DNA of 24,028 nucleotides from assembly GCF_003334305.1 (NCBI RefSeq), contig NZ_QOWS01000037.1; one strand, 5' to 3'. Below are positions 20,016 through 20,031 of this stretch, in pieces. The position numbers and the translations under genes were made by a program. Numbering within the stretch: the stretch's first letter is position 1; the number at the start of each line of letters is the position of its first letter. Source of the stretch: Escherichia coli (lineage in GTDB: Bacteria; Pseudomonadota; Gammaproteobacteria; Enterobacterales; Enterobacteriaceae). The notes below the pieces were generated by a model that had not been told where the DNA came from, made no database searches, and saw only the letters and a program-made list of their open reading frames with translations.

Positions 20016-20031
20016 GCTGAATTGATTCAGG
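20016..20031. promoter_or_regulatory. Candidate Cra (FruR) operator upstream of pfkA
   Basis: GCTGAATTGATTCAGG: inverted repeat CTGAAT/ATTCAG, 11/12 match to the Cra core TGAAWCGWTTCA; ~105-120 bp upstream of the pfkA ATG. pfkA is a known Cra-repressed gene. Confidence 0.5.

Follow-up and report, generated by a model that had tools for sequence, protein, structure and literature searches.

The stretch of DNA analysed here raises the question of whether the near-palindromic 16-mer that lies upstream of pfkA is an operator for the repressor Cra (FruR) and, if so, whether its position on the DNA favours promoter occlusion or a transcriptional roadblock as its mode of action. This stretch, referred to below as the window (24,028 nt), is a segment of the Escherichia coli chromosome that runs from priA to cpxA. 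Cra is a dimeric repressor of the LacI/GalR family and the main flux-sensing regulator of E. coli carbon metabolism, and pfkA encodes the main phosphofructokinase, which carries out the committed step of glycolysis.

A Cra operator between fieF and pfkA

The 16-mer, GCTGAATTGATTCAGG on the plus strand of the window, reads CCTGAATCAATTCAGC on the pfkA sense strand and lies inside the 180-bp fieF-pfkA intergenic region, where it covers positions -121 to -106 relative to the pfkA ATG and leaves 59 bp between the fieF stop codon and the distal edge of the operator. The following features define the locus.

18948..19910, minus strand: pfkA coding sequence (6-phosphofructokinase 1), the regulated gene, with its ATG at 19910 (open reading frame, translation and RefSeq annotation)
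20091..20993, minus strand: fieF coding sequence, the upstream neighbour (open reading frame, translation and RefSeq annotation)
20016..20031, minus strand: Cra (FruR) operator of pfkA (sequence, 14/16 consensus match, published operator and ChIP-exo peak, conservation)

The 16-mer is a dyad: two perfect arms of 6 bp each, CTGAAT and ATTCAG, flank a 2-bp TG centre, and the outermost G...G pair is not complementary. As nine perfect 6+2+6 dyads were observed in the window against ~5.9 expected, the dyad form by itself is not unusual, and the distinctive feature of GCTGAATTGATTCAGG is its match to the Cra consensus rather than its form. The published 16-bp consensus is GCTGAATCGATTCAGC, also written gcTGAAtCGaTTCAgc, and the ChIP-exo motif for Cra is ctgaAtCGaTtcag (PMC5888115). 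Scored by mismatches to the published consensus in place of a position-weight matrix, GCTGAATTGATTCAGG agrees with gcTGAAtCGaTTCAgc at 14 of 16 positions, the mismatches on the plus strand being a central C-to-T and a last C-to-G change, and it is the only match with two or fewer mismatches in the 24,028-nt window. By chance, 0.006 such matches per window would be expected on base composition, and 300 first-order Markov simulations give 0.013. The original prediction of a near-consensus Cra dyad at 20016-20031 is thus upheld, with a 14/16 match for which the chance expectation is ~0.01. The inverted Cra half-sites TGAAnC and GnTTCA are present in the pfkA site as CTGAAT/ATTCAG, with TG at the centre and not CG; this centre does not count against membership in the Cra operator class, because the missing central CG is a published peculiarity of the pfkA operator, which the window matches.

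The sequence GCTGAATTGATTCAGG is in fact the already published Cra/FruR operator of pfkA, and the finding is not new. In the ChIP-exo report, earlier work is described as having placed a Cra site upstream of the pfkA sigma70 promoter, and the same report gives a Cra ChIP-exo peak at pfkA, with near single-base resolution, as “covering -35 box”, with binding strongest on acetate and weakest on fructose (PMC5888115). A second source describes the pfkA operator as lacking the central GC pair and gives a Cra Kd of 3.5 nM, taken from Negre 1996 (10.1101/201277). Cra bound to a pfkA operator oligonucleotide in biolayer interferometry, and binding was lowered by 1 mM F-1-P or 10 mM F-1,6-BP on all three operators examined, including that of pfkA (10.1101/201277). 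The proposal that the site upstream of pfkA serves Cra repression is supported by published binding both in vitro and in vivo. The site in the window shares with the published operator (Ramseier et al. 1995; Negre et al. 1996; Kim et al. 2018) the gene, the intergenic region, the dyad without central CG and the overlap with the -35 region of the sigma70 promoter, and no difference at the level of the site was found. The fruB operators O1 and O2 resemble it in the protein that binds them, in their TGAAnC/GnTTCA half-sites, in repression and in release by F-1-P, whereas they keep the central CG, are bound ~100-fold more tightly (Kd 1.8e-11 M compared with 3.5e-9 M for pfkA; 10.1101/201277) and form a cooperatively bound pair, pfkA having a single weaker site.

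The window, which comes from a non-K-12 E. coli strain, is collinear with K-12 MG1655 and differs from it by 20 SNPs over the 2401 nt compared. Neither the operator nor the P1 promoter differs between the window and K-12, so that experiments carried out in K-12 apply directly; in K-12 coordinates the operator lies at NC_000913.3 4107431-4107446. Within the species, the 281 bases around the site are present in all 5426 complete E. coli genomes, with annotated pfkA and fieF, and the 40 bp around the site are identical in 5423 of the 5426.

Outside the intergenic region, four Rfam elements scored above the gathering threshold in the window, all of which are expected in an E. coli region of this kind.

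18829-18870, plus strand: ES036/CssrF, between sbp and pfkA
23875-23952, plus strand: naRNA4/CssrE, downstream of cpxA
5119-5176, plus strand: ClpQY (hslVU) promoter element
455-507, minus strand: gammaproteobacterial L31 leader, upstream of rpmE

Three Cra-like elements were also observed on the plus strand upstream of tpiA (ATG 15955), at 15794-15809, 15820-15831 and 15872-15877. The element GTTGAACCGATTAAGC has three mismatches to the Cra consensus, TGAATCGCTTGA has one mismatch to the Cra core, and the third is a half-site, TGAATC, separated by 2 nt from the downstream -10 element (TATACT) of the published P1 promoter of tpiA. Cra ChIP-exo and FNR ChIP-seq peaks have both been reported for this region, the FNR peak at approximately window position 15890.

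The operator on the pfkA P1 promoter

Whether a repressor bound at this site would occlude a promoter or block an elongating polymerase depends on where transcription of pfkA begins. The published sequence of the P1(-P2) promoter is ATCAATTCAGCAGGAAGTGATTGTTATACTATTTGCACA, in which transcription begins at an A located 78 nt upstream of the ATG (PMC2759082, Table 1), and the evidence for this start consists of 5'RACE, pyrosequencing and in vitro transcription (PMC2759082). This sequence was located in the window, and counting along it places the P1 start at 19988, giving the following promoter features.

19988, minus strand: pfkA P1 (P1-P2) transcription start, an A (PMC2759082)
19997..20005, minus strand: extended -10 of pfkA P1, TGTTATACT, with TG at 20005-20004 and the hexamer TATACT at 20002-19997 (PMC2759082 sequence matched to the window)
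19939, minus strand: pfkA P3-P4 transcription start, 29 nt before the ATG (PMC2759082)

Relative to the P1 start, the operator extends from -43 to -28 and is centred at -35.5, with its edge 13 nt upstream of the -10 hexamer, which belongs to an extended -10 of the TGn type. No recognisable -35 hexamer was found at P1, the best candidate 17 bp upstream being TCAATT (2/6), which lies inside the operator. Judged by its sequence, P1 belongs to the extended -10 promoters and has no real -35 hexamer, and this is why it was not detected by a simple promoter scan in which at least 4/6 matches were required in each hexamer. CTGACC was considered as a P1 -35 hexamer and rejected, since it matches TTGACA at 4/6 positions but would leave a 27-bp spacer to TATACT. 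Cra sites of repressed genes overlap the promoter or lie downstream of it, and the site at pfkA, a gene of central carbon metabolism, overlaps it with its centre at -35.5.

With the operator centred at -35.5 on P1, occlusion is the likely mechanism, and this answers the question of occlusion or roadblock that the original prediction had left to the exact position of the site. The reading that the pfkA Cra operator covers the -35 and spacer region of P1 and represses by promoter occlusion is assigned a probability of roughly 90%. The repression step itself, in which Cra probably competes with polymerase for DNA of the -35 and spacer region, is read from the geometry. A Cra dimer on -43 to -28 would cover the DNA needed by sigma region 4 and by upstream polymerase contacts, so that sigma70 RNA polymerase would form no closed complex at P1, and P1 would be shut under gluconeogenic or low-flux conditions, when Cra is expected to be DNA-bound. 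A rise in glycolytic flux would lead F-1-P or F-1,6-BP to bind Cra and lower its affinity for DNA, freeing the promoter. Because the centre is TG instead of CG, the operator is of moderate affinity (nM as against pM for fruB), and partial, graded repression is expected from it.

The second mapped start, P3-P4, follows that of P1 by 49 nt and is ~84 bp away from the operator centre. As this is beyond the direct reach of a repressor at the operator, part of pfkA transcription should escape Cra, and P3-P4 may provide a Cra-independent floor of pfkA transcription. In the study that mapped these starts, Cra control of pfkA was not singled out, and for two other Cra targets, pykF and epd-pgk-fbaA, no more than a minor role of Cra was suggested under the conditions used (PMC2759082). 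The sole difference from K-12 in the fieF-pfkA intergenic region is at 19940, far from the operator, where the sense strand has T in the window and C in K-12. This SNP adjoins the P3-P4 start, whose base is called C in one place and T in another (PMC2759082).

Conservation of the operator and rival readings of the site

The conservation of the site was followed by phylogenetic footprinting, in which one genome per species was taken and pfkA loci were found with a degenerate pattern for PfkA codons 3-25, using nothing from the upstream region. The sample comprised at least 120 loci; the counts cover the 103 of Enterobacterales type for which 160 nt or more of sequence upstream of pfkA was present. 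Three loci were left out of the counts, those of a Bacteroidales MAG (L020), a Methanobacterium MAG (L092) and a Ruminococcaceae MAG (L099). In these three the PfkA N-terminal pattern matched and no ATG was present 6 nt before the match; they may represent convergent PfkA N-termini or mis-binned contigs.

Among the loci listed, the operator is kept in 98 of 103 Enterobacterales species. The exact sequence CCTGAATCAATTCAGC occurs at 86 of the 103 listed loci, the variant CTTGAATCAATTCAGC at 10 (Yersinia, Rahnella, Hafnia psychrotolerans and Lonsdalea) and the variant CCTGAATCAATTCAGT at 2, and the operator is absent from the remaining 5 listed (three Rosenbergiella, one Erwinia and a Plesiomonas MAG). 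At every operator-bearing locus listed (98/98), the operator is followed by nine variable bases and then by TTGnTATAnTAT; relative to the ATG, its position varies between -112 and -219. A fixed 9-nt spacing to TTGnTATAnTAT together with a varying distance to the ATG indicates that it is the promoter, rather than the coding start, to which the operator is tied. In a set reduced to one sequence per genus (38 sequences), the 13 core columns served as the anchor and are identical by construction, so that the informative results are the recovery of the core in every genus and the behaviour of the unanchored flanks. Across these 38 genera, information content is 0-0.8 bits per column in the spacer that separates the operator from the -10 element and in the sequence that follows the -10 element, compared with ~2 bits in the operator and the -10 element themselves; TTGnTATAcTAT is nearly invariant at a fixed spacing to the operator, and both non-consensus bases of the operator are almost invariant.

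Beyond the Enterobacterales, no Cra dyad was found at pfkA in any of the 10 Vibrionaceae loci among those listed. FruR is reported to be a local regulator of the fructose operon in Vibrionales and a global regulator only in Enterobacterales (PMC4052901), and the distribution of the site, present in Enterobacterales and absent from Vibrionaceae, agrees with the spread of the global Cra regulon. In the three Rosenbergiella loci (L010, L028 and L108), the Cra dyad has decayed to CCTATATCAACTCAGG, with an extended -10 at unchanged spacing. In Erwinia piriflorinigrans (L070), a member of the Erwiniaceae like Rosenbergiella, the dyad has decayed to CCTGAATCAATTCGTC and the extended -10 spacing is likewise kept.

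A moderately conserved block, TTTTGTGTATAAAATACCGCCATTTGG, was also observed upstream of the operator (20037-20063, minus strand, -49 to -75 from the P1 start). It is ~60-85% conserved per column across Enterobacterales, contains a TATAAA hexamer and keeps TTACC(G/A)C even in distant genera; it could be an UP-like element, the site of another factor or an unmapped upstream promoter.

These data bear on two other explanations of the site. LacI-family repressors can serve as roadblocks, and Cra at this site might halt polymerases that read through from fieF or start at an unmapped promoter in the TGTGTATAAAAT block (20047-20058), an explanation for which it may be said that the DNA between fieF and the site yielded no intrinsic terminator, that RNA folding shows none either, and that 30 bp separate the site from the moderately conserved upstream block with its TATAAA hexamer. 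A roadblock, however, lies downstream of the start of the transcript that it blocks, whereas the mapped pfkA starts (19988 and 19939, 78 and 29 nt before the ATG) are both downstream of the operator, which can therefore be no roadblock for either. In addition, 5'RACE and pyrosequencing reported no start upstream of the site, and no start at the TGTGTATAAAAT block is on record in that study (PMC2759082). The invariant spacing to the P1 -10 element in 98 species, among the loci listed, is that expected of a promoter-overlapping operator, and the authors of the ChIP-exo study likewise read the site as promoter-overlapping (PMC5888115), leaving a roadblock very improbable. It could also be argued that the 16-mer is a chance dyad, or an RNA hairpin of the fieF 3' region, with no DNA-binding role, given that perfect 6+2+6 dyads are common (nine in the window) and that about one Cra consensus match with two or fewer mismatches is expected by chance per genome (~1.2 per 4.6 Mb). 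Against this, all 37 other genera in the comparison share the 13-nt core TGAATCAATTCAG in spite of divergence in the DNA that flanks it, and Cra binding has been published in vitro and in vivo (PMC5888115, 10.1101/201277). A chance origin is thus ruled out by the match to the consensus together with the conservation and the binding reported in the literature, and a site with no DNA-binding role is hardly conceivable. The RNA hairpin was rejected because a 6-bp stem cannot close on a loop of 2 nt, and RNA structure on the minus strand at 19985-20095 was rejected because its folding is no better than that of shuffled sequence (z = +0.48).

The pfkA Cra site is textbook material that has been used in flux-biosensor designs, so that its confirmation adds nothing new. 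What is mildly new is limited to the order-wide invariance of a sub-optimal operator and an FNR-like box that overlaps it.

A candidate FNR-like box overlapping the operator

The near-invariance of the non-consensus bases, together with the conservation of a 4-nt flank, is not accounted for by Cra binding alone. In all 38 genera T-46, G-45, A-44 and C-43 are 100% conserved, the first three of them lying outside the Cra 16-mer, and TGA directly precedes the 16-mer at all 98 operator loci listed. These bases form part of a candidate box of the form TGA-N6-TCA, which is centred at -40.5, agrees with the FNR consensus TTGAT-N4-ATCAA at 8/10 positions with a perfect right half, and shares 10 bp with the Cra operator.

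20022..20035, minus strand: candidate FNR/CRP-family box CTGAC-CTGA-ATCAA, tentative (flank conservation, proximity to an FNR ChIP-seq peak, Vibrionaceae homologue)

It is conceivable, though on balance doubtful, that the site is a composite element in which a box for FNR or a related protein of the CRP family overlaps the Cra operator, so that Cra would also act by excluding FNR or its relative. FNR or the relative would bind the box under anaerobiosis and compete with Cra for the 10 bp, since two proteins cannot share these 10 bp simultaneously. Such a composite would add to the Cra reading without replacing Cra.

Several features of the sequence are in keeping with a composite. The nine bases on the other side of the operator are variable, unlike the conserved TGA flank, and the central G-to-A departure from the Cra consensus, on the sense strand, creates the perfect FNR half-site ATCAA. 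An FNR ChIP-seq peak named “pfkA”, found by three peak callers and centred at ~4105472 in the older K-12 numbering, has a PWM ln(p) of -10.54, similar to those of dmsA and dcuB (Myers 2013, PMC3688515, Table S5). This peak maps to approximately window position 20013, ~15 bp from the centre of the box. Up to 75 bp from the peak, the box is the sole FNR-like match with at most two mismatches, against 0.06 expected. The mapping used a 1977-bp offset between the two K-12 versions, and the older (v2) gene positions on which it depends were checked against the spacing of pfkA and tpiA, 3955 bp there as in the window. The rraA peak of the same data set covers the same half-sites, CTGAC-N4-ATCAA, at window 8039-8052 (PMC3688515). 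The sequence there, CTGACAAATATCAA (CTGAC-AAAT-ATCAA), lies on the plus strand upstream of rraA, within ~12 bp of the rraA FNR peak (~8058).

Comparison between families is also in keeping with a composite. All 11 of the Vibrionaceae and Plesiomonas loci listed carry (C/G)TGAT(A/G)TGAATCAAC or TGTGATGAGCGTCAAC without a Cra dyad, at a fixed 18 nt before TGTAATACT or TGTATATT, and the homologous element has the form TGA-N6-TCAAC. The three Rosenbergiella loci without a Cra dyad retain TGA-N6-TCA and a -10 element at the same spacing, though this is evidence from a single lineage. Anaerobic induction of pfkA in Shigella and a predicted Fnr site reported at the Actinobacillus pfkA are further points in favour of a composite.

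Other observations weigh against a composite. Matches of 8/10 to the FNR consensus are common, with 20 in the window against ~10 expected. In the FNR study, for which glucose minimal medium was used, pfkA is among the peaks without an FNR-dependent change in expression, with FruR noted as the other regulator (PMC3688515, Table S9), and no predicted FNR site sequence is listed for pfkA in the supplements of that study (Myers 2013, PMC3688515). A second study gives pfkA as without a canonical FNR sequence and lists no FNR effect (PMC4229854). The centre of the box in Enterobacterales is 26.5 bp from the -10 hexamer, compared with the 29.5 bp of class II geometry found in Vibrionaceae, and with the box 3 bp short of class II geometry, activation from its position is doubtful. 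The TGA flank could also be an unrecognised extension of the Cra contacts. The left half-site, CTGAC, makes the protein family ambiguous, so that CRP could be the protein instead of FNR, and cAMP raises pfkA expression. The best alignment of the box to the CRP consensus TGTGA-N6-TCACA reaches 6/10, and no CRP match with three or fewer mismatches overlaps the box; tentatively, FNR appears to fit the candidate box better than CRP, a CRP-family site being possible as well.

Set beside known class II FNR sites, which lie near -41.5 (for example yfiD, pykA and focA at -40.5), the pfkA box is likewise centred at -40.5 and lies near an FNR peak, but it matches the consensus at only 8/10 positions, is 3 bp closer to the -10 element, shares 10 bp with a repressor site and shows no FNR-dependent change of pfkA expression in the published data set. 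A possible history, put forward with some reserve, is that an older FNR/CRP-family box (TGA-N6-TCA), shared with Vibrionaceae and Plesiomonas, was overlaid by the Cra dyad in the ancestor of Enterobacterales and that the central A of the sense strand was kept for ATCAA.

For the Cra operator itself, the near-invariant non-consensus bases and the fixed geometry argue that selection has acted either to hold the affinity at a tuned, sub-maximal level or to preserve a second function that overlaps the operator. The conserved TGA flank offers a concrete and mutable candidate site for the pfkA FNR ChIP-seq peak, and if the composite is real, it would give a mapped site to this published and unexplained peak and would mean that carbon-flux and oxygen signals are joined at the committed step of glycolysis.
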